64,000 nt of DNA from the sequence record PZ000613.1. One strand, written 5' to 3'. Shown here piece by piece: positions 2,877 through 63,343 of the stretch (the stretch's first letter is position 1; each line of letters opens with the position of its first letter). The DNA is from a phage. Position numbers and translations under genes: made by a program. A model generated the notes under the pieces. That model made no database searches. It was not told the DNA's origin and worked only from the letters and a program-made list of their open reading frames with translations.

Positions 2877-3143
2877 ATGACTATCAAAGAAGTTAAATTG
2901 TCTAGCGGCTTTTCTGTTTTTGTTGGCGATACCGCTATCACGTTCAATCTGCGTCATGGTCAGCTAATGTTGCCCGTTGTTACTTTCTGCGTCATGGATT
3001 TTAAAAAGGCTAAAAATTGGTTATCTGCTGTAGGGATTGATATTAACCGCGATGACTTCCGTTCAATTTATTTTGACGGTGGGTTGTCACTGGCAAATCT
3101 GCTAAATCATGGGCTTAATGGGGATGATACTAATGGGAAATGA
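2877..3143 (+). CDS. Hypothetical early protein
   Basis: ORF 88 aa, co-oriented, SD AGGAG upstream. Confidence 0.55.
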   Translation: MTIKEVKLSSGFSVFVGDTAITFNLRHGQLMLPVVTFCVMDFKKAKNWLSAVGIDINRDDFRSIYFDGGLSLANLLNHGLNGDDTNGK

Positions 3144-3396
3144 AACTATTGCGATAATTGATACGCATAATTACGGTGGCGTTACGTTGTCTTTCGATGA
3201 ACCTATCGACGCTGGTTATTTGTCTTTTCTTTCTAAGGGTGAGATACAAACTATCCGTTTTCCTATTGTCTGCTTAGTGCAAGATTATCTAACTATAGGT
3301 AAGTATCTTGCCCAACGTGGGATTTTGTTGTCGCTGGAAGAAGTGGAACATATCAGCGTAGCATTTTTTAGCGAGGGTAACAATGATGATTCATGA
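3133..3396 (+). CDS. Hypothetical early protein (start at internal ATG overlapping upstream stop)
   Basis: ATGA-type overlap with preceding gene suggests translational coupling. Confidence 0.5.
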   Translation: MGNETIAIIDTHNYGGVTLSFDEPIDAGYLSFLSKGEIQTIRFPIVCLVQDYLTIGKYLAQRGILLSLEEVEHISVAFFSEGNNDDS

Positions 3397-11147: not shown

Positions 11148-11324
11148 GTGAGAGTAAAGCAAATCCATAAAGACTACTGGAGAGTCGCTGATAGTGAAAA
11201 CCAAAGGCTTGCAGGAATCTCTCTTATAGGTCAATGGTTTGTTGTAACTTCTGCCGCAGGTCAGTATGTTGGACGGTTTCGTTCCCTAAATGAAGCTATA
11301 TCCTTTTCTATCAAAGGTTCTTGA
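11148..11324 (+). CDS. Hypothetical protein (GTG start, 58 aa)
   Basis: GAGG SD 7 nt before in-frame GTG; track start 11088 would overlap upstream gene. Confidence 0.4.
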   Translation: MRVKQIHKDYWRVADSENQRLAGISLIGQWFVVTSAAGQYVGRFRSLNEAISFSIKGS

Positions 11325-11325
11325 T

Positions 11326-11490
11326 ATGATCAAGTGGTTTAAACGTTTCTTCCATCTCCATGATTGGGAGACAATAAAAGAAATTCGTTTACACATATAC
11401 AATGAGATCGGTCAAATAGAAGACACAGGTACTCGTTATATACTTCGATGTAAAACATGTGGTCATATCACCAAGCGAGATATGATCTAA
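11326..11490 (+). CDS. Small hypothetical protein (54 aa)
   Basis: Internal ATG immediately after upstream stop; C-terminal CKTCGH. Confidence 0.45.
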   Translation: MIKWFKRFFHLHDWETIKEIRLHIYNEIGQIEDTGTRYILRCKTCGHITKRDMI

Positions 11491-11498
11491 ATAATTCT

Positions 11499-11574
11499 GC
11501 GCTCTTAGCTCAATGGATAGAGCAGTAGCCTTCTAAGCTATTGGTTACAGGTTCGAGTCCTGTAGGGCGCACCA
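11499..11574 (+). tRNA. tRNA-Arg (anticodon TCT), CCA encoded
   Basis: Cloverleaf: acceptor GCGCTCT/AGGGCGC, D-arm AGCTCAATGGATAGAGC, anticodon loop CTTCTAA, T-arm GGTTCGAGTCC, discriminator A plus CCA. Confidence 0.85.
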
Positions 11575-11580
11575 CATTTA

Positions 11581-11695
11581 GGGCTAGTATGGGTGCGGCA
11601 CCAGAGTTAGTGTATCCCTGTTGAGGCAAGTGCTTTTATAACAGTGGGAATTACTTTCTTAGTGAGCTTCTGGTTCGATTCCAGATAGTCCACCA
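11581..11695 (+). other. tRNA-like element of atypical length (115 nt)
   Basis: Canonical T-arm TCTGG-TTCGATT-CCAGA, 6-bp acceptor-like pairing 11581-86 with 11686-91, discriminator plus CCA; interior 82 nt has no clean D/anticodon arms. Confidence 0.3.
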
Positions 11696-11714
11696 AATCA
11701 AATAGGAGGTAGTT

Positions 11715-11996
11715 ATGAGTTGGGGTGGTGTAATATCCTTAATCTGTATCTTCCTTGTCTGCATAGCCCTTACAGGCTGCGTACAGAGCCGTCCTGATGG
11801 ATGGTGTGCAGTAGCAGTGGAAGGTATTTGTGTTTCTCGCTGGCACCAAGGCGAGAAGGTTCCTTCTGGTGAAATTGATATGCGTTACAGTGGTATCTCA
11901 TGTCTTAACGGTGCAGCAGTAGATGAGGAGACTAAAACCTTATCCAATGCTCAATGGTGTGGCGGTTCTGTAACAACAACCGGTAAGGAGTGGTAA
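11715..11996 (+). CDS. Predicted lipoprotein, Cys-rich (93 aa)
   Basis: Signal peptide ending in lipobox LTGC; SD AGGAGG 7 nt upstream. Confidence 0.65.
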   Translation: MSWGGVISLICIFLVCIALTGCVQSRPDGWCAVAVEGICVSRWHQGEKVPSGEIDMRYSGISCLNGAAVDEETKTLSNAQWCGGSVTTTGKEW

Positions 11997-11997
11997 T

Positions 11998-12246
11998 ATG
12001 ACAGCTCATTATTGGAATACAAAGAAGCTTCTTGAAGAGATGGCTGGAGGTAGTAGGGTACAGTTAATCTCTATGCTTCGAATGGATGCTCGCTCCTTAC
12101 GCTTCCAAGTAAAGATTGGTAACTTCAGTGACGGCCTTTATTACACGCTGAAGGAAAGGATTAAGAAGACTCACTTCATCATGTACGGAATCAAACCGAG
12201 AACGTACGTTAACTACATGTATTGGAATACATGCTACGATAATTGA
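11998..12246 (+). CDS. Hypothetical protein (82 aa)
   Basis: ATG overlapping upstream stop. Confidence 0.55.
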   Translation: MTAHYWNTKKLLEEMAGGSRVQLISMLRMDARSLRFQVKIGNFSDGLYYTLKERIKKTHFIMYGIKPRTYVNYMYWNTCYDN

Positions 12247-12253
12247 GGTTATT

Positions 12254-12475
12254 ATGAAACTAGACTCTAAGCAGTCACTTAAAACCGTTGAGCTGTCCAC
12301 TCTGCCAAACGGAAGTATTTTTGGTCATGATAAACACTTCTGGATTAAAACAGACATCATAAACGATGGATATATCACCTGTGTCAATCTTTGGAACGGC
12401 TCAGTGGATGGCTATCGCCCTAGCGCAAAGGTGGTGCCTCAGCCTGATGCAAAGGCTACAGGTTTGGTTTACTAA
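12254..12475 (+). CDS. Early small-protein paralog family A member
   Basis: VELSTLPNGSIFG...FWIKTD motif. Confidence 0.6.
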   Translation: MKLDSKQSLKTVELSTLPNGSIFGHDKHFWIKTDIINDGYITCVNLWNGSVDGYRPSAKVVPQPDAKATGLVY

Positions 12476-12635: not shown

Positions 12636-12809
12636 ATGAGTTGTTTTGGTGGCGGTGAAGTGGATGACGATGATGATATGGAATCTAACGGTACATGTCC
12701 TGATTGTGGATGTGAGACGTGGGATGGCGTGTCAGTGTATCCTGCCTGTAGTTACTCACCAGTGATCTGTAAAACATGTGGAGATCAACCTTGTGACCAG
12801 TCTTGTTAG
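12636..12809 (+). CDS. Small Cys-rich acidic protein (57 aa)
   Basis: SD CAGGAG 5 nt before ATG; 10 cysteines in CPDCGC...CKTCG...PCDQSC. Confidence 0.5.
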   Translation: MSCFGGGEVDDDDDMESNGTCPDCGCETWDGVSVYPACSYSPVICKTCGDQPCDQSC

Positions 12810-12810
12810 T

Positions 12811-13035
12811 GTGTTAATAGCCTATTTAATAGGGTCAGTAGTATCAGGTGTTCTAATTAAGATCATAGATGTTAAAGGTAATCAGTGTTTCAGAGGTTGG
12901 GATGGTGAACCAGATCTCGGAAAGATAGCAGCTATGGTTTTCTTATGGCCTATTATTGCTGTACTGTTTATAGCACTTGTAGCATGGGCTGCCCTTTGGG
13001 ATTTCATCCTTCCTAACAAAAAGTATGAGGACTAA
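12811..13035 (+). CDS. Small membrane protein, LWPI-motif paralog 1 (GTG start)
   Basis: Two hydrophobic segments; shares EPD...M...LWPI motif with 13178-13435. Confidence 0.5.
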   Translation: MLIAYLIGSVVSGVLIKIIDVKGNQCFRGWDGEPDLGKIAAMVFLWPIIAVLFIALVAWAALWDFILPNKKYED

Positions 13036-13177: not shown

Positions 13178-13435
13178 ATGGGTTTACTTGATATTTTTAT
13201 CTCAGTTTACTTTATTGGAGTATTCCTTTCTGTTTTAGTGCTGAAACTACTATACAAGAAAGGTCTACTAAAAGGGGTCATTACAACAGGGTCTACCAGC
13301 TCTGAACCTGATGAGATGATGGTTGTGATCTTAATTGTGTTATGGCCCATCTCAATACTGGCAGGAGTCTGTTATCCGATAGGTTGGCTTCTGTCTAAAG
13401 CATATGATGCAGTTATACGTTTTATATTTAAGTAA
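13178..13435 (+). CDS. Small membrane protein, LWPI-motif paralog 2
   Basis: ATG ORF 85 aa with two TM segments, paralogous to 12811-13035. Confidence 0.6.
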   Translation: MGLLDIFISVYFIGVFLSVLVLKLLYKKGLLKGVITTGSTSSEPDEMMVVILIVLWPISILAGVCYPIGWLLSKAYDAVIRFIFK

Positions 13436-56685: not shown

Positions 56686-57720
56686 TTATTGTATGCTTCT
56701 AAAAATCTTTCTAGCGTCAAGTACGGGGATGTTTATACCAATAGCTCCTCCACCGCCTAAGTCATATTGGTTGGACCAAGAATAAATCATCCTACCATAG
56801 CCCGTGCCAAAGGAAGAACCACTCATTGTATGAGATCTTGCGTGTTGGAAGTACCACCCACTTGCACTACCTCTTATAGCTCCAGCTCCATAAGAAAGAG
56901 GGATCATGGGATACGACAGTGTAGTGTTACCTCCACTCATAGGCATAAACCTGTCAACCATGAATGGTGTTCTATATGTAGAAAATACACATTGAGATCC
57001 ATTAGGGGAGTATATATTCAGTCCGCCATTGTGGGTGGGAACTCCTGCCCCATCACAGAATACTGCAATCCTAACCCCGTTAATAGAGCCTGTTTGGTTT
57101 GTGTTCCCGTTGTCGTGAGACCTATTCTGATAGACATACACCGTTCTATTAGAAGGGTTGTATAGTAGTCCAGCACTTCCGCTATTCCAGTTAGCAAAAA
57201 CAGATGCCCTGTTCATGTCGAAACCGCTGATAGCTGGGATTTGCATTGAACTGTTTATATTACCTTCCCAAGCCCAAATACATTGACCAACAACACCTGA
57301 ATCAGAGATAGAGAAATAGTCTGCTGAATTGGAAAAAGTTATGCCGTAGTTTCTATTAGCTCTAGGCCAGATTTGATACACGTTAAAAGCCATATCAAAT
57401 ATCCAACCGTTAACGTTGTAGTCCATTGTGACCCTGAAGGTGGAGTTATTAACAACAGATATGTTGGTTAGCCAGTAAACATCTGATGTTACGTTGGGAG
57501 GTATGTACCGTTCCCAAACCACAGAACCTGTAGGTACTATAACTATTTGACCACTTCCATCCCACCCACTGATAGGTAGATCACACGTATTACCATTAAA
57601 TGTGAAGTTACCACTAACCCTATTCCTTAATTGAGGAAAGGTGGTACCACTATCAATAAAAAGCTCAGCCGGAGAAGCTGGTCCCGGTCCGACTGGCGTT
57701 GTCCATATTCCATATGCCAT
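56686..57720 (-). CDS. Virion structural protein (344 aa), beta-rich, possible distal tail/receptor-binding protein
   Basis: Asn/Ser/Gly/Trp-rich ORF in tail-fibre neighbourhood. Confidence 0.6.
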   Translation of the reverse strand: MAYGIWTTPVGPGPASPAELFIDSGTTFPQLRNRVSGNFTFNGNTCDLPISGWDGSGQIVIVPTGSVVWERYIPPNVTSDVYWLTNISVVNNSTFRVTMDYNVNGWIFDMAFNVYQIWPRANRNYGITFSNSADYFSISDSGVVGQCIWAWEGNINSSMQIPAISGFDMNRASVFANWNSGSAGLLYNPSNRTVYVYQNRSHDNGNTNQTGSINGVRIAVFCDGAGVPTHNGGLNIYSPNGSQCVFSTYRTPFMVDRFMPMSGGNTTLSYPMIPLSYGAGAIRGSASGWYFQHARSHTMSGSSFGTGYGRMIYSWSNQYDLGGGGAIGINIPVLDARKIFRSIQ

Positions 57721-57721
57721 A

Positions 57722-58735
57722 TTACCAAGTCCCTATTCTAATACGAAGCGTACCATTTGCATCATAGAAGTCGATACGGCTACCATTCATCCACAACCGG
57801 TTACTACCAGAGCCAGCACCTAATTGGAAATCCCCACCAACAGTAAGTCTCCAGTTCGTACCACTCATAGCCCCAGCTGTAATTTTATTGGCTGCCAAGT
57901 TTTGAATCTGAGCATTACTTACTGAAACGTTATCAATCTGTGCCCATTGAATCCTAGCATTAGCTATCATAGCAGTTGTGATGTTGACGTTCTTTATATC
58001 AGCGAACTCCATCCTAGCTCTTCCGTTCTCAAACACAAAAGGTGTATTCCCTGTCGTGCCATTACCAACGATAAACTTGTTAGCTGTTACTTGGAATTGG
58101 CTGTTTGTTCCATTGTTAGTTAGCTTAACTCCAGCATACTGACCGTTAACAGAAGAGTTAACACCCCAAGTTGCTTCATATGAAGAAAGCTTCATATACT
58201 GAGAAAGGGAGTTCTGTACGTTAGTGACCTTCCCATCAACGTCAGTAATTTGCTGCCCTTGAGAGGTAAGTTCTGTCTGGACTAAAGCAATCTCTTCTCC
58301 TTGCTGGTTAACAATACCTTGAACAGTCTGTATCTTAAGATCATTACCTTCAATACTCGTTTTAATACCAGAGATAGAACTTTCTAGTTTAACCGGAGGT
58401 TGTACTGAGTTATCCCAAATATCATCAGTGGACAAGTTGCCCATCTGTGTTATGATGTCTGCAATAGCTGTTTCAATCTCTGTAGTAATCCTATTCTCAA
58501 GCTCATCGAATTGTAAGTTCATCGCATTAAGAGCTTTGATACGAACATCAATCTCATCGTGAATCTCGTCAATAGCTTGGAACATTTGGTTAGTGGCTGT
58601 GCTGACTTTCTGTAATTCATCATACACGGCTACGTTATAAGTTTCTGTGTCCTGTACATTATTGAGAAACCCAACGTTGTACGGGAGTGTGGTGTTATTG
58701 CGACCAGTGTTCTTACGAAAACCACCTGCACCCAT
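57722..58735 (-). CDS. Tail fibre protein (337 aa)
   Basis: Start moved to internal ATG with SD GGAGGA; N-terminal coiled-coil then Gly/Asn-rich beta region. Confidence 0.6.
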   Translation of the reverse strand: MGAGGFRKNTGRNNTTLPYNVGFLNNVQDTETYNVAVYDELQKVSTATNQMFQAIDEIHDEIDVRIKALNAMNLQFDELENRITTEIETAIADIITQMGNLSTDDIWDNSVQPPVKLESSISGIKTSIEGNDLKIQTVQGIVNQQGEEIALVQTELTSQGQQITDVDGKVTNVQNSLSQYMKLSSYEATWGVNSSVNGQYAGVKLTNNGTNSQFQVTANKFIVGNGTTGNTPFVFENGRARMEFADIKNVNITTAMIANARIQWAQIDNVSVSNAQIQNLAANKITAGAMSGTNWRLTVGGDFQLGAGSGSNRLWMNGSRIDFYDANGTLRIRIGTW

Positions 58736-58747
58736 AAGTTCCTCCAA

Positions 58748-58774
58748 AACAATAAAAGGGGCACGAAGCCCCTT
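58748..58774 (-). terminator. Probable intrinsic terminator/attenuator between tail-fibre genes
   Basis: Minus-strand hairpin AAGGGGC-ttcgt-GCCCCTT followed by TTTATTGTTTT. Confidence 0.5.
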
Positions 58775-58778
58775 GTTG

Positions 58779-61778
58779 TTATCTCCGCCCGCCAACAGCA
58801 AACTCTATCGTTAAACCATTGATAGCAGCATTACTGTTAACATCATTATCTATAACATTATAGAAAAGGTATGGATGGTTCAGTCTCACTGAGACGTGCC
58901 TATCAACACCAATCGTATACGTCTTGGATGTATGTGGATGACCATATTCGTTTGAGAATTGACTACCACCCGCCTCGAAAGTATACGTACCAGAGCCTGT
59001 TGTTTGAGGTCTGAACCTATTGATATGCTTCTGATTCCATTCATTAGTGACGTTATCAAAATCAATACCAGTTCTTTCTAACCTCATCTCCAGCGGTTTT
59101 TCTATAACCTTATCATTAAGCCTATCATAGAAGTAATCTAAAGCACCAACATCCACTTGATAGAAGCCTCGTAGGAACGAACCTACTATCGTAACCCTCT
59201 GACGGAAGTTAGTTGCATCCTTTCTCCAAACAAGCTCTTTGATCGATGGGTCATCCCAAGTGATCTCTTGGAAGTCAGCCCAAATCGGACCCCTTTCAAG
59301 GACAGGAGGATCAACCAAACCAATACACTGAGCGTATGGGATAGTGCGGAAAGACCAAGTATCAAACTCGTAGTTCCATACAGCAGCTTTAGTGCAAGCG
59401 AAGCTTTCTTTTGGTTCTCCCGGACCTACATAAAGAACCCAAACTTCTTTCTTGTCCTGATGCAAATGTACTCTAGTTGCTAAAGGGTTAACTAAACATA
59501 TCTCGTTAATCAGCATGTTCTTAACACGGTTAGAAGCGATTGACTTCTTGGTTGCACCATTGTGTAAGATCACGTCGTTCTGAGTAACTACAAAGTGACT
59601 ACCTTCAACTTCGACCACGCACTCAGGGGCAAGGATGCCTGAATCGTTAAAGAGTTTCTTGAACATCAGAGGTTGGTATGTGTTATTAGTTGGAGAACCA
59701 ATATACGTTTCAAACTCTGTATAAACGAACAAGTAGTCTTTAAGAGGTAGGATATCAATCAAGCTTCCGTTGGAGTCTGCTAAATCAATGTAACCAGCAT
59801 ACCCATTTTCTAACGCTTGAGTCTGACCTACGATGTTAGAAGCCAAATCTGAAGACACAGCTCGATCGTAAGCGAAGTCATCCCATAACGTAGGAGCTTT
59901 GTTCTCATTAGCAAAGTTAGACCAACGAAGACGAAGCGGGTAGTTAGTGGTAACACCAGATGCATTAGACTCCCTCATATTCAGAGCAAACAACCTGTTG
60001 TTGAAAGATCTTACTCTTTCACACTTCCAGTTAAATTTCTTAACCGAAGGGTTTCCATCACTATCTACTACTGTTTGTTCACCCCATCCCGGAAGATCTA
60101 CGAAGTATTCAGATTCAAACTCCTTAACCTGAGGGGTTTCGTAGTGAGTGGTTGCTACTGCACAGTTAGAGATTACTGCATGATACCAAGGATAGTCATC
60201 AAATGCATCGTAGTCTCTCTGAGTCATCTGACTTACTGTACAGGTCACGTTAATCTCCCCCTTACGAAGAGCGGTAAGTTTAAGTGTTTTCCCTGTTACC
60301 GATGTAGTAGAAACATATCCAGTTTTATCAACAGACCAAAGATATGAATACTCTCCTTCAGGGGAAGCGGTAGCTGTTATAACTATCTCTTCTCCAACAT
60401 CAAGAGAAGCACTAACAACATCCAACGTTACAGAATCAAGAGGGGTAGCAAAGAGAGAAGCTCTTGCAAAACCTTCCATATCGTTTACGTTAGAATAGTC
60501 GTAGAAATTGTTACCTTCAGCCATCCCTGTCGTATCAATTCCAGATGTAGGTGCTGCAAAGTAAACAACATCCTCTGATTCAGGGACTACAACTTCTTCA
60601 GAAACTGGCTCTGGTTCTGGTGCTGCCATAAAGGAAGATCTTAACATTCTACCAGCAAGCTCAACACGAACGGTACAAACAGCAGTTCTACTACCTTCTT
60701 GAGTTGTAGCAGTAATCTCTGTAAACCCAGCTGTGATTGCAGTGATGGTAGCTTCTGTTCCTGTACCAGATACCGTAGCAATGTTCGGATTAGAAGAAGT
60801 CCAAGTGATGTTCTTATTAGGAGCATTAGCTGGAGATACAGTAGCTGTGAGAATATACTGAGTACCTCTGTTAACAGTTACATCAGTCTGACTTAAAGAA
60901 ACGCTATCAATCTGAGGTATTGCATTAACAGTACAAGTAGCAGTCTTCGTTCCGTTATCTGCTGTGATAGTTGCAGTGCCTACTCCATTAGCAGTGATAA
61001 CAGCAGTTAAGGTGTTTGTGTTAGGAACAACTGATACAATGGCTCCGTTGTTAGTAGACCACGTTACAGGTGTTTTTCCAGTAACAGCTGTGATCGTAGT
61101 GTTACTCTCTTTACGAACAGTCACTGTGTCTTGGCTTAAGAAGATACCTGAATCACCATCAATGATATTAACAGCAATCTGAGCAGATACAGTTTCATCT
61201 TTAGTTTTTACGGTAACAACTAAATTACCTTCCTTACTCAGAGATGTTAGAGAAGCTTTCTTAGAATCAGTTGGGTCTACTGTTATCTGACCGTATGAAG
61301 AGTTACTTAAACTCCAAACTAACTCGGCATTGTTAGCATCCTCTGGAAGAACCGAAACCTCAAGAGCTTTGGTCTGGTTGAAGTTCATAGAGATGGTCGT
61401 TTCTTTAGGAACAATTCTAGAAACAACTGGATAAATCTTAATAGAGGCAGAAGCCCTCTTAGTGACTGTAGCAACCTTACGGCTTATATCAGTCAAGCTT
61501 TCATCTGTCAGCTTATATAACTTCTTATTAGTTCCCACAACAAGAAAGCTATTGCCTGCGCTATAGTAATCAAAAGGCATAGATACAAAAGACAGAGGTG
61601 TTAAATCTTTATCTTCATCTACGTAAGAAAGAGGGGCATTGCCCCCCGTCTTAAAAACCCTCTGCTCAACAAAGCGAGCGTTTATAGCATTAGTGAAAGC
61701 ATTAGGAGCTAAGTCTGTTGGAGCCTGATCAGCGATTACGCCTACAGCACCTAAAGACTTGATTGGATACAGCGCCAT
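58779..61778 (-). CDS. Large tail fibre / host-specificity protein with Ig-like (Big_2-type) repeats (999 aa)
   Basis: Central repeated Thr/Val/Ser-rich beta-sandwich-like segments; SD AAGGAGG. Confidence 0.7.
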   Translation of the reverse strand: MALYPIKSLGAVGVIADQAPTDLAPNAFTNAINARFVEQRVFKTGGNAPLSYVDEDKDLTPLSFVSMPFDYYSAGNSFLVVGTNKKLYKLTDESLTDISRKVATVTKRASASIKIYPVVSRIVPKETTISMNFNQTKALEVSVLPEDANNAELVWSLSNSSYGQITVDPTDSKKASLTSLSKEGNLVVTVKTKDETVSAQIAVNIIDGDSGIFLSQDTVTVRKESNTTITAVTGKTPVTWSTNNGAIVSVVPNTNTLTAVITANGVGTATITADNGTKTATCTVNAIPQIDSVSLSQTDVTVNRGTQYILTATVSPANAPNKNITWTSSNPNIATVSGTGTEATITAITAGFTEITATTQEGSRTAVCTVRVELAGRMLRSSFMAAPEPEPVSEEVVVPESEDVVYFAAPTSGIDTTGMAEGNNFYDYSNVNDMEGFARASLFATPLDSVTLDVVSASLDVGEEIVITATASPEGEYSYLWSVDKTGYVSTTSVTGKTLKLTALRKGEINVTCTVSQMTQRDYDAFDDYPWYHAVISNCAVATTHYETPQVKEFESEYFVDLPGWGEQTVVDSDGNPSVKKFNWKCERVRSFNNRLFALNMRESNASGVTTNYPLRLRWSNFANENKAPTLWDDFAYDRAVSSDLASNIVGQTQALENGYAGYIDLADSNGSLIDILPLKDYLFVYTEFETYIGSPTNNTYQPLMFKKLFNDSGILAPECVVEVEGSHFVVTQNDVILHNGATKKSIASNRVKNMLINEICLVNPLATRVHLHQDKKEVWVLYVGPGEPKESFACTKAAVWNYEFDTWSFRTIPYAQCIGLVDPPVLERGPIWADFQEITWDDPSIKELVWRKDATNFRQRVTIVGSFLRGFYQVDVGALDYFYDRLNDKVIEKPLEMRLERTGIDFDNVTNEWNQKHINRFRPQTTGSGTYTFEAGGSQFSNEYGHPHTSKTYTIGVDRHVSVRLNHPYLFYNVIDNDVNSNAAINGLTIEFAVGGRR

Positions 61779-62603: not shown

Positions 62604-63095
62604 TTAATATTTACCTTCGGTATAAAGATCAGCTTCTGCAACCCTTCTGTTATGAAGACCCTGACTTCTCTGCTTCTTTCCTTTCACCGTAATCTTATCC
62701 CAACGAAGAAACTCTGAGTATACATCACCTTTGACTTCTCCATTGATAACCTTCCTCAGCTTAGATGTGCTCAGTGCACCACTGCCAACATTGAAGTTGA
62801 AAGAGGTGAGTGCATCGAACTCATGAATAAGCAAAGGAACCTTTATGTTTTTCTGAGTAGCACGAACAGAGTCTTGTGTGTCTCTATCTAGCAGAGCTAG
62901 ACAATCCTCTATAGAATATGTTAATCCTTGCCTAACCGGATAACCATTCATATCGCGCGTAGCCCCTACACATATCGTCCAGATACCTGCGGAATCTTTA
63001 TAAGCCTTAGTTCTCATACCCTCATGCTTCATGATGAATTCCATTCCAGCTGGGCTTAAGTTTAAATGTACAGGTGGCAATGCGACGTTATCCAT
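62604..63095 (-). CDS. GH24 lysozyme (endolysin, T4 e/lambda R type)
   Basis: Catalytic-region motifs HEGMRTKAYKDSAGIWTICVG and FNFNVGSGAL; SD AAGGAGG. Confidence 0.85.
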   Translation of the reverse strand: MDNVALPPVHLNLSPAGMEFIMKHEGMRTKAYKDSAGIWTICVGATRDMNGYPVRQGLTYSIEDCLALLDRDTQDSVRATQKNIKVPLLIHEFDALTSFNFNVGSGALSTSKLRKVINGEVKGDVYSEFLRWDKITVKGKKQRSQGLHNRRVAEADLYTEGKY

Positions 63096-63124
63096 TTCTA
63101 ACCTCCTTTTATGTTCCCTTTAAA

Positions 63125-63343
63125 TTAAGGTAGTATCTTTCTCAGAGCGTTAGATTCAGCATCAGGACAAATAACAACCAAGTTATTTTGAATAGTTCGC
63201 TGTTTGCATTGAGAACTAAGTTTCTCAACAGGAGCTGGTGCTGTGACTAATGGATGGACTGCGTTAACAGGAACTGCTGTAGAGACTACAACTCCTGCAC
63301 CTAAACAGACTAAACCGTAAACAGCTTGTTTCATCATTTTCAT
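63125..63343 (-). CDS. Small membrane/secreted protein upstream of endolysin (possible holin or lysis accessory)
   Basis: Single N-terminal hydrophobic segment, 72 aa, SD AGGAGA; function inferred from position only. Confidence 0.45.
   Translation of the reverse strand: MKMMKQAVYGLVCLGAGVVVSTAVPVNAVHPLVTAPAPVEKLSSQCKQRTIQNNLVVICPDAESNALRKILP

Follow-up and report, generated by a model that had tools for sequence, protein, structure and literature searches.

A Kuravirus early-region lipoprotein belongs to the Rtp45 family and is probably an LptDE-binding superinfection-exclusion factor

The early region of the Kuravirus DNA analyzed here (a stretch of 64,000 nucleotides, referred to as the window throughout) encodes a small lipoprotein that is a clear homologue of Rtp45 and a member of its family, PF24052, in every sequence and structure feature that could be tested. 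The structure of Rtp45 from coliphage Rtp, determined in complex with the LPS translocon LptDE, shows it on the periplasmic side, where it displaces a loop needed by the phage receptor-binding protein (RBP; PMC12685063). We put the probability that the Kuravirus protein is an LptDE-binding superinfection-exclusion lipoprotein of the Rtp45 type at roughly 0.7. The chances that the excluded phages include the Kuravirus itself, i.e. that LptD is its terminal receptor, appear evenly balanced. Binding of the lipoprotein to LptDE, exclusion and the use of LptD by Kuraviruses are all proposed on the strength of homology and context. What is new is a podovirus early-operon variant of the Rtp45 family with an extra, presumably disulfide-stapled insert, as well as the use of LptDE that this variant would imply. 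A structure-backed function can thereby be proposed for a gene that has been annotated merely as 'putative lipoprotein' since 2008.

The gene, its immediate surroundings and the two parts of its product are located as follows.

11499..11574, plus strand: tRNA-Arg(UCU), upstream neighbour of the lipoprotein gene in the same early transcription unit
11704..11709, plus strand: Shine-Dalgarno sequence AGGAGG, read directly from the sequence, 5 nt 5' of the ATG
11715..11996, plus strand: lipoprotein precursor gene with ATG start, 93 aa plus stop (PF24052, Rtp45 family)
11715..11777, plus strand: signal peptide (residues 1-21) with the lipobox residues L19-T20-G21 at its end, just before C22, and a predicted helix over residues 3-20
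11778..11993, plus strand: mature lipoprotein, 72 aa, with C22 as the predicted acylation site and V23 at +2

The earlier note on this DNA had described an ORF of 93 aa located among early genes beside a tRNA, and both points hold. The product of the ORF (MSWGGVISLICIFLVCIALTGCVQSRPDGWCAVAVEGICVSRWHQGEKVPSGEIDMRYSGISCLNGAAVDEETKTLSNAQWCGGSVTTTGKEW) starts at an ATG with AGGAGG 5 nt upstream, and the gene exhibits a dN/dS of 0.05-0.16 against the phiEco32 and SU10 orthologues (0.08 in comparison with phiEco32, 0.16 with SU10), which identifies it as a real translated gene under purifying selection. The region around it shares 98% of its nucleotides with Escherichia phage PGN6866, 97% with SU10 and some 93% with phiEco32, and the window can therefore be assigned to a Kuravirus (Gordonclarkvirinae; a prolate C3 podophage similar to phiEco32 and SU10). 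The orthologues of the gene are phi32_106 of phiEco32 ('putative phage lipoprotein') and gp104 of SU10 ('putative lipoprotein'). The assignment to the early class is based on the papers on SU10 and on phage 7-11: CDS 69-125 constitute the early class of SU10, with sigma-70 promoters near CDS 125 and CDS 120/121 (PMC4281155), and phiEco32 relies on the sigma-70 holoenzyme of its host to transcribe its early genes (PMC8948821). A promoter/terminator scan revealed no enrichment and no promoter-like site directly upstream of the lipoprotein ORF, which fits a polycistronic early transcript. Since an Rfam scan of positions 11300-12100 matched tRNA-Arg alone, no riboswitch or leader is assigned to the ORF. 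An origin as a prophage moron was ruled out, since a DNA-level search of 5,426 complete E. coli genomes gave no match.

The tRNA-Arg(UCU) and the lipoprotein gene are separated by 140 nt. Most of this spacer (11575-11700, plus strand) resembles a decayed or interrupted second tRNA with acceptor-like pairing (GGGCUAG.../...AUAGUCCACCA) and a T-arm (GGUUCGAUUCC). It was called by ARAGORN at lowered thresholds only, found no match in Rfam and gave a fold z-score of -2.2. The corresponding spacer of phiEco32 comprises only 22 nt, and in some relatives the site is occupied by an HNH endonuclease. In the SU10 RefSeq record (NC_027395; L002, locus 3090-3312) no tRNA is annotated upstream of gp104; SU10 is 97% identical to the window over positions 11400-12300, tRNA-Arg(UCU) included, and the missing tRNA looks like an annotation gap.

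The signal peptide ending in the lipobox LTGC that had been proposed for the precursor is confirmed by the hydropathy of residues 6-19 (VISLICIFLVCIAL), which have a mean Kyte-Doolittle value of 3.3 and are directly followed by L-T-G-C22. The n-region (MSWGG) is devoid of Lys and Arg, in contrast to the MKK... of the siphovirus homologues, and the type II assignment is a prediction. Since the residue at +2 is V23 and not Asp, sorting to the outer membrane is expected. When all six frames of the 64-kb window were passed through a simple signal-peptide-plus-lipobox filter, this gene was the sole ORF bearing a lipobox. The seven cysteines that had been attributed to the mature part are those of the entire precursor (positions 11, 16, 22, 31, 39, 63 and 82), while the mature part contains five. 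C11 and C16 would be lost when the signal peptide is cleaved off and C22 would be acylated, which leaves four cysteines free for disulfides (C31/C39 and C63/C82).

Residues 61-93 represent a Kuravirus-type extension that carries the C63/C82 pair as well as the C-terminal KEW common to Rtp45. What sets Kuravirus-type proteins apart from Rtp45 is an inserted segment of variable length that is bracketed by this second cysteine pair and precedes the shared C-terminal G-K-E-W, the proteins being 93, 99 or 108 aa long. An AF2 model of the lipoprotein (pLDDT 85) shows a long hairpin made up of residues 52-69 and 76-92. Judging from the strand boundaries in this model, positions 63 and 82 would lie opposite each other across the hairpin, which makes a stapling disulfide between C63 and C82 plausible.

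Kinship with Rtp45 was apparent in profile, pairwise and structural comparisons. In Pfam the protein matched all 80 positions of the PF24052 profile ('Phage lipoprotein family') with an E-value of 6e-36 and a score of 122.7 bits, far above the cut-off of 27, and Rtp45 itself is a member of this family with 128 bits. A phmmer search of all PDB chains retrieved 9rps_D (Rtp45, 'Phage lipoprotein') with an E-value of 7.9e-16 over residues 6-74, and BLASTP against Rtp45 translated from AM156909 gave 43% identity over 70 aa (E 7e-20). Within the core, residues 26-60 (RPDGWCAVAVEGICVSRWHQGEKVPSGEIDMRYSGI), 21 of 35 residues (60%) are identical to Rtp45, including the C31/C39 pair. These two cysteines align with the Cys30-Cys38 disulfide of Rtp45 and are invariant among the 22 sequences of the family alignment, a property shared only with C22, G29 and G60. 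The family is small: a set of 1.84 billion representatives contains 16 clusters of it at the 50% identity level. The PHROGs match of the lipoprotein is phrog_4281, annotated as function unknown. When the AF2 model, whose underlying alignment left out Rtp45, was compared with the PDB by Foldseek, 9rps_D was again the best match (prob 1.00, TM 0.76 normalised to Rtp45) at an E-value of 1.8e-3, which is modest because the chain is short; the runner-up had an E-value of 0.44. The suggestion of the earlier note that the gene encodes an early receptor-masking or exclusion factor is supported by this homology (PF24052; 9RPS_D at E 8e-16; disulfide; fold) and by its genomic context, above all the RBP homologue described below.

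According to the published report (PMC12685063), Rtp45 sits between LptE and LptM, where it contacts the LptD barrel at its periplasmic rim close to strands 5-8 and buries an interface of roughly 1,000 Å². Rtp45 residues 30-35 are beta-strand-paired with LptD residues 318-323, a Cys30-Cys38 disulfide is described, and a long hairpin extends up the LptD lumen. Rtp45 shifts extracellular loop 4 of LptD outward by up to 20 Å and keeps it from moving into the open state, and with Rtp45 bound the binding of the LptD-specific RBP is prevented. In the sections of this report that were covered, binding and loop displacement are demonstrated structurally, and no in vivo exclusion assay for Rtp45 was found.

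For the Kuravirus lipoprotein we propose a corresponding course of events. The gene, one of many in a long early operon, would be read by the sigma-70 RNA polymerase of the host early in infection, and the precursor would be exported by Sec, lipidated at C22 and cleaved. With Val at +2 the lipoprotein would be sorted to the outer membrane by Lol, while DsbA would introduce the C31-C39 disulfide and probably the one between C63 and C82 too. It would then dock on the periplasmic rim of LptDE as Rtp45 does, with beta-strand pairing next to the disulfide equivalent to C31-C39, and its beta-hairpin would be pushed up the LptD lumen, which would displace extracellular loop 4. LptD with a displaced loop 4 would refuse RBPs of the DUF6453 type. 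Superinfection would thus be blocked, and infected cells, as well as the debris they later leave, would neither take up nor inactivate LptD-using phages. The phages excluded would most likely be the Kuravirus itself, through a gp19-like RBP at its needle tip, and LptD-dependent siphoviruses. The contacts to LptDE could differ from those of Rtp45, considering the Kuravirus extension (17-32 aa) with its second cysteine pair and the mere 43% identity between the two proteins.

The parallels between the Kuravirus lipoprotein and Rtp45 (9RPS chain D) include PF24052, an overall identity of 43% that rises to about 60% in the core, a lipobox-containing type II signal peptide (predicted here), the lack of Asp at +2, the C-terminal KEW, the beta-hairpin fold, the invariant disulfide pair (C30-C38 in Rtp45, C31/C39 here) and a co-occurring DUF6453 RBP. 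In contrast, Rtp is a siphovirus and the Kuravirus a podovirus, and the rtp45 gene is located directly upstream of the RBP gene, whereas the Kuravirus gene lies about 45 kb away in the early operon. Furthermore, the mature part comprises 57 aa in Rtp45 and 72 aa here, where the insert is closed by C63/C82, the Kuravirus n-region has no positive charge, and LptDE binding is predicted for the Kuravirus protein. The position downstream of gpJ and beside the RBP gene that is common for such lipoprotein genes was thus not found in the window; it is a non-defining feature, since the Webervirus homologues are also unlinked. The superinfection-exclusion lipoprotein of Dhillonvirus Oekolampad (bas18_0026) and gp32 of Webervirus KingDDD belong to the same family by tblastn, with 37-49% identity over the core. 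The genes of the Webervirus homologues are, as in the Kuravirus, unlinked from the RBP gene, while the Oekolampad and Webervirus lipoproteins differ from the Kuravirus type in being shorter, in mostly lacking the second cysteine pair and in residing in siphovirus genomes.

Two further exclusion systems were considered. The earlier note had drawn an analogy to Llp of phage T5. This analogy stands as far as the proposed function is concerned, i.e. a small early outer-membrane lipoprotein that binds the phage's terminal receptor from the periplasmic side and alters its extracellular loops. It does not extend to the sequence, in which no relationship is detectable, or to the target, which for Llp is a TonB-dependent transporter (FhuA) and here is likely LptDE. 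Membership in the Llp family was rejected, since phmmer against the PDB (E<=10) returned Rtp45 and one chance match and there was no Llp-type Pfam match, with the proviso that the sequence negative presupposes a chain of Llp in the PDB set, which the published work on FhuA and Llp leads one to expect. Llp acts via long-range allostery, whereas Rtp45 displaces the loop sterically (PMC12685063). Cor of phi80, N15 and T1-like phages is likewise a small exclusion lipoprotein encoded with host-recognition genes; it acts on FhuA, unlike the protein proposed here, and membership was rejected in the absence of any meaningful Pfam match besides PF24052. Rtp45 was reportedly likened to Cor originally, by Wietzorrek and colleagues in 2006.

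The DUF6453-type siphovirus locus is the one tied to LptD, and the window contains a counterpart of its RBP together with a tail needle gene.

56686..57720, minus strand: DUF6453 protein, 344 aa, orthologue of SU10 gp19 and homologue of Rtp44 and RBP-Oekolampad; putative cognate partner of the lipoprotein
57722..58801, minus strand: tail needle, orthologue of SU10 gp18, its gene directly upstream of gp19, with a C-terminal lambda-J-type tip domain

The first of these was located by tblastn of the window with Rtp44, the LptD-type RBP encoded beside rtp45 (E 2e-13); phmmer with Rtp44 against six-frame translations missed it, and tblastn, Pfam and the PDB search detected it. Both the window gp19 (E 1.5e-25) and Rtp44 (E 1e-113) belong to PF20051 (DUF6453). 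Among PDB chains, gp19 matched 9rpt_C, the Oekolampad RBP bound to open LptDE, with an E-value of 2.8e-12 over residues 49-334. For the AF2 model of gp19 (pLDDT 81, pTM 0.82) the same chain was the only significant PDB match in Foldseek (E 1.1e-11, TM 0.78, rmsd 4.3 Å). Database entries label gp19 as 'membrane protein' (SU10) or 'moron/host takeover' (PHROG 1265). Despite these labels gp19 is a full-length homologue of the LptD-binding Oekolampad RBP (9RPT_C). Among 20 homologues residues 1-29 are nearly invariant and residues 30-113 hypervariable, which from the alignment appears to be the usual pattern of a conserved virion anchor and a variable receptor-binding body.

The needle contains a PF09327 'tail tip fiber' domain (aa 196-341, E 4.6e-25) and aligned to the very C-terminus of the lambda-J-like Rtp43 (last ~230 residues, E 9e-7). 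From this alignment, the tip of a siphovirus central fibre has apparently been fused to the coiled-coil part of the needle. In small siphoviruses dedicated RBPs are thought to be non-covalently attached to the J-like tip and are encoded with cognate exclusion proteins (PMC8594841), and the J-type tip of the needle is presumed to serve as the RBP dock. With a J-type tip, an RBP and an exclusion lipoprotein all present, the Kuravirus genome holds a whole LptD host-recognition module. A podovirus precedent for the use of LptD is provided by Pseudomonas phage DEV.

The distribution of these genes was examined against a reference set of 99 records in the phage collection that carry a Gordonclarkvirinae short tail fibre. 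At 60% identity or more the lipoprotein was present in 98 records of the collection and gp19 in at least 92, and an alternative gp19 type of about 44% identity occurred in further records such as Bas92. A distant SU10-like phage (metagenomic contig ENA ERZ1305919 NODE_71, 100,570 bp) encodes a lipoprotein with 47% identity, whose gene opens the early region, and a 46%-identical DUF6453 gene directly after the PF09327 needle and before the SLT ejection protein. In Salmonella phage 7-11, which shares the virion genes of the phiEco32 type, none of the three parts was found by family HMM or tblastn (best E 0.6). The lipoprotein and RBP families are encoded side by side in Rtp, in Dhillonvirus and in the lambdoid phage mEp515 and are unlinked in Webervirus. 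Therefore, an unlinked lipoprotein gene is not unique to the Kuravirus. In the Webervirus Klebsiella phage KingDDD (L006 locus 2995-3222) the Rtp45-family gene is located between helicase and Dam methylase genes, and in the related Kpn01BRG the lipoprotein and RBP genes are about 10 kb apart. Compared with PGN6866, the lipoprotein region is 98% identical and gp19 only 63%, i.e. the alleles of the two genes reassort and do not co-vary. Such reassortment would be expected if the lipoprotein reads the conserved periplasmic face of LptD and the RBP its variable outer loops.

How these parts would work together in the Kuravirus can be outlined, with about equal odds for and against, as follows: a single gp19 docks on the J-type needle tip, binds LptD and triggers the release of the needle, and the early lipoprotein closes this door from the periplasm; a podovirus needle would in this case have acquired a complete siphovirus host-recognition module, with the exclusion gene moved to the early operon. 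Our literature search returned no paper linking Kuravirus, phiEco32 or SU10 with LptD, DUF6453 or PF24052. Self-use of LptD has to be weighed against a reading in which the lipoprotein blocks LptD exclusively against competing siphoviruses (Rtp-like phages, Dhillonvirus), while the Kuravirus enters via glycans and gp19 has another role. In SU10, gp19 was not detected by virion mass spectrometry, in which gp16-18 and gp20-24 were, and it is not mentioned in the SU10 cryo-EM paper or its supplement, both of which count against the use of LptD by Kuraviruses themselves. The BASEL extension paper describes a strict O-antigen dependence of Kuraviruses and presumes that the LPS core, bound by the short fibres, is their terminal receptor, which together with the independent reassortment of lipoprotein and gp19 alleles also favours purely heterotypic exclusion. 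The needle tip of SU10 is flexible and was reconstructed at 15 Å with C3 symmetry, RBP-Oekolampad engages LptDE as a monomer, and a single-copy monomeric gp19 at such a tip could have escaped detection. Exclusion of competitors alone is opposed by the full-length homology of gp19 to an LptD-bound RBP and its RBP-typical conserved N-terminus and hypervariable body, by the position of its gene directly after a needle with a J-type tip, and by the fact that all three parts persist in a distant lineage and are jointly missing in 7-11. We regard it as an unlikely alternative.

Less likely again is a role in host takeover, in which the hairpin would plug LptD and stop the insertion of new LPS and O-antigen, exclusion being a side effect of an envelope change that serves, e.g., lysis or a reduced adsorption to O-antigen. 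The course of the Rtp45 hairpin up the LptD lumen (PMC12685063) is in line with such a plug, as is early expression among host-takeover genes. On the other hand, Rtp45 was co-expressed with LptDE for purification and toxicity is not mentioned in the accessible part of its report, copies of LptDE outnumber active Lpt bridges, and the siphovirus lipoprotein gene travels with the RBP gene, which indicates a role in adsorption. This renders interference with LPS export as the primary function improbable.

Small superinfection-exclusion lipoproteins evolve fast, and the Kuravirus protein might have retained the Rtp45 fold and diverged in specificity towards another outer-membrane protein or another periplasmic target. 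An identity to Rtp45 of only 43%, the extra extension with its putative disulfide staple and the fast evolution of this type of protein would agree with such a shift. Conservation is highest in the core, which contains the beta-strand and the hairpin of Rtp45 (21/35 identical), and a homologue of LptD-type RBPs co-occurs; both argue against a change of target, which we consider very improbable. An o-spanin or other lysis lipoprotein, which might be suspected from the sole lipobox ORF in the 64-kb window and from the lack of an annotated spanin beside the SU10 holin and endolysin, is scarcely credible and Rz1-like membership was rejected, as the gene is early and about 50 kb from holin/endolysin (62.6-63.3 kb), its neighbours in the early operon are a tRNA and a soluble-looking protein (by eye), no i-spanin is adjacent or embedded (the downstream 82-aa protein has no hydrophobic membrane-spanning segment by eye), the mature part is not Pro-rich with 2 Pro among 72 residues, and the homology to LptDE-binding Rtp45 is strong. 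The lysis genes (holin/endolysin) of the window are found at 62604-63343 on the minus strand, and since the six frames of the 64 kb contain no other ORF with signal peptide plus lipobox, this part of the genome offers no o-spanin candidate near them.

The Rtp45-type reading brings to light an LptD module that had been overlooked in phages that are well studied and in therapeutic use. The lipoprotein and the overlooked gp19 both bear on the terminal receptor of Kuraviruses, which are popular in therapy, and on the trigger that releases their needle. LptD is essential and conserved, and a second, unrelated virion type that targets it would therefore matter for the design of phage cocktails. If the reading is true, cross-exclusion would operate between Kuraviruses and LptD-dependent siphoviruses, and both would select for the same resistance, with relevance for phage steering and for the movement of receptor modules between phage morphotypes.

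Several other early genes encoded downstream of the lipoprotein gene were noted. A 57-aa early protein (12636-12809, plus strand) is very acidic with a DDDDD run, contains 10 Cys in CxxC-like spacing and matches phrog_13157, annotated as function unknown; a small host-takeover factor that binds zinc is one possibility. ORFs 12778-13035 and 13178-13435 (plus strand) encode two early proteins of 85 aa, each with two hydrophobic segments by eye and no PHROG match, which are weakly similar to each other around 'EPD...LWPI' and could be inner-membrane factors, possibly a further layer of exclusion or takeover.
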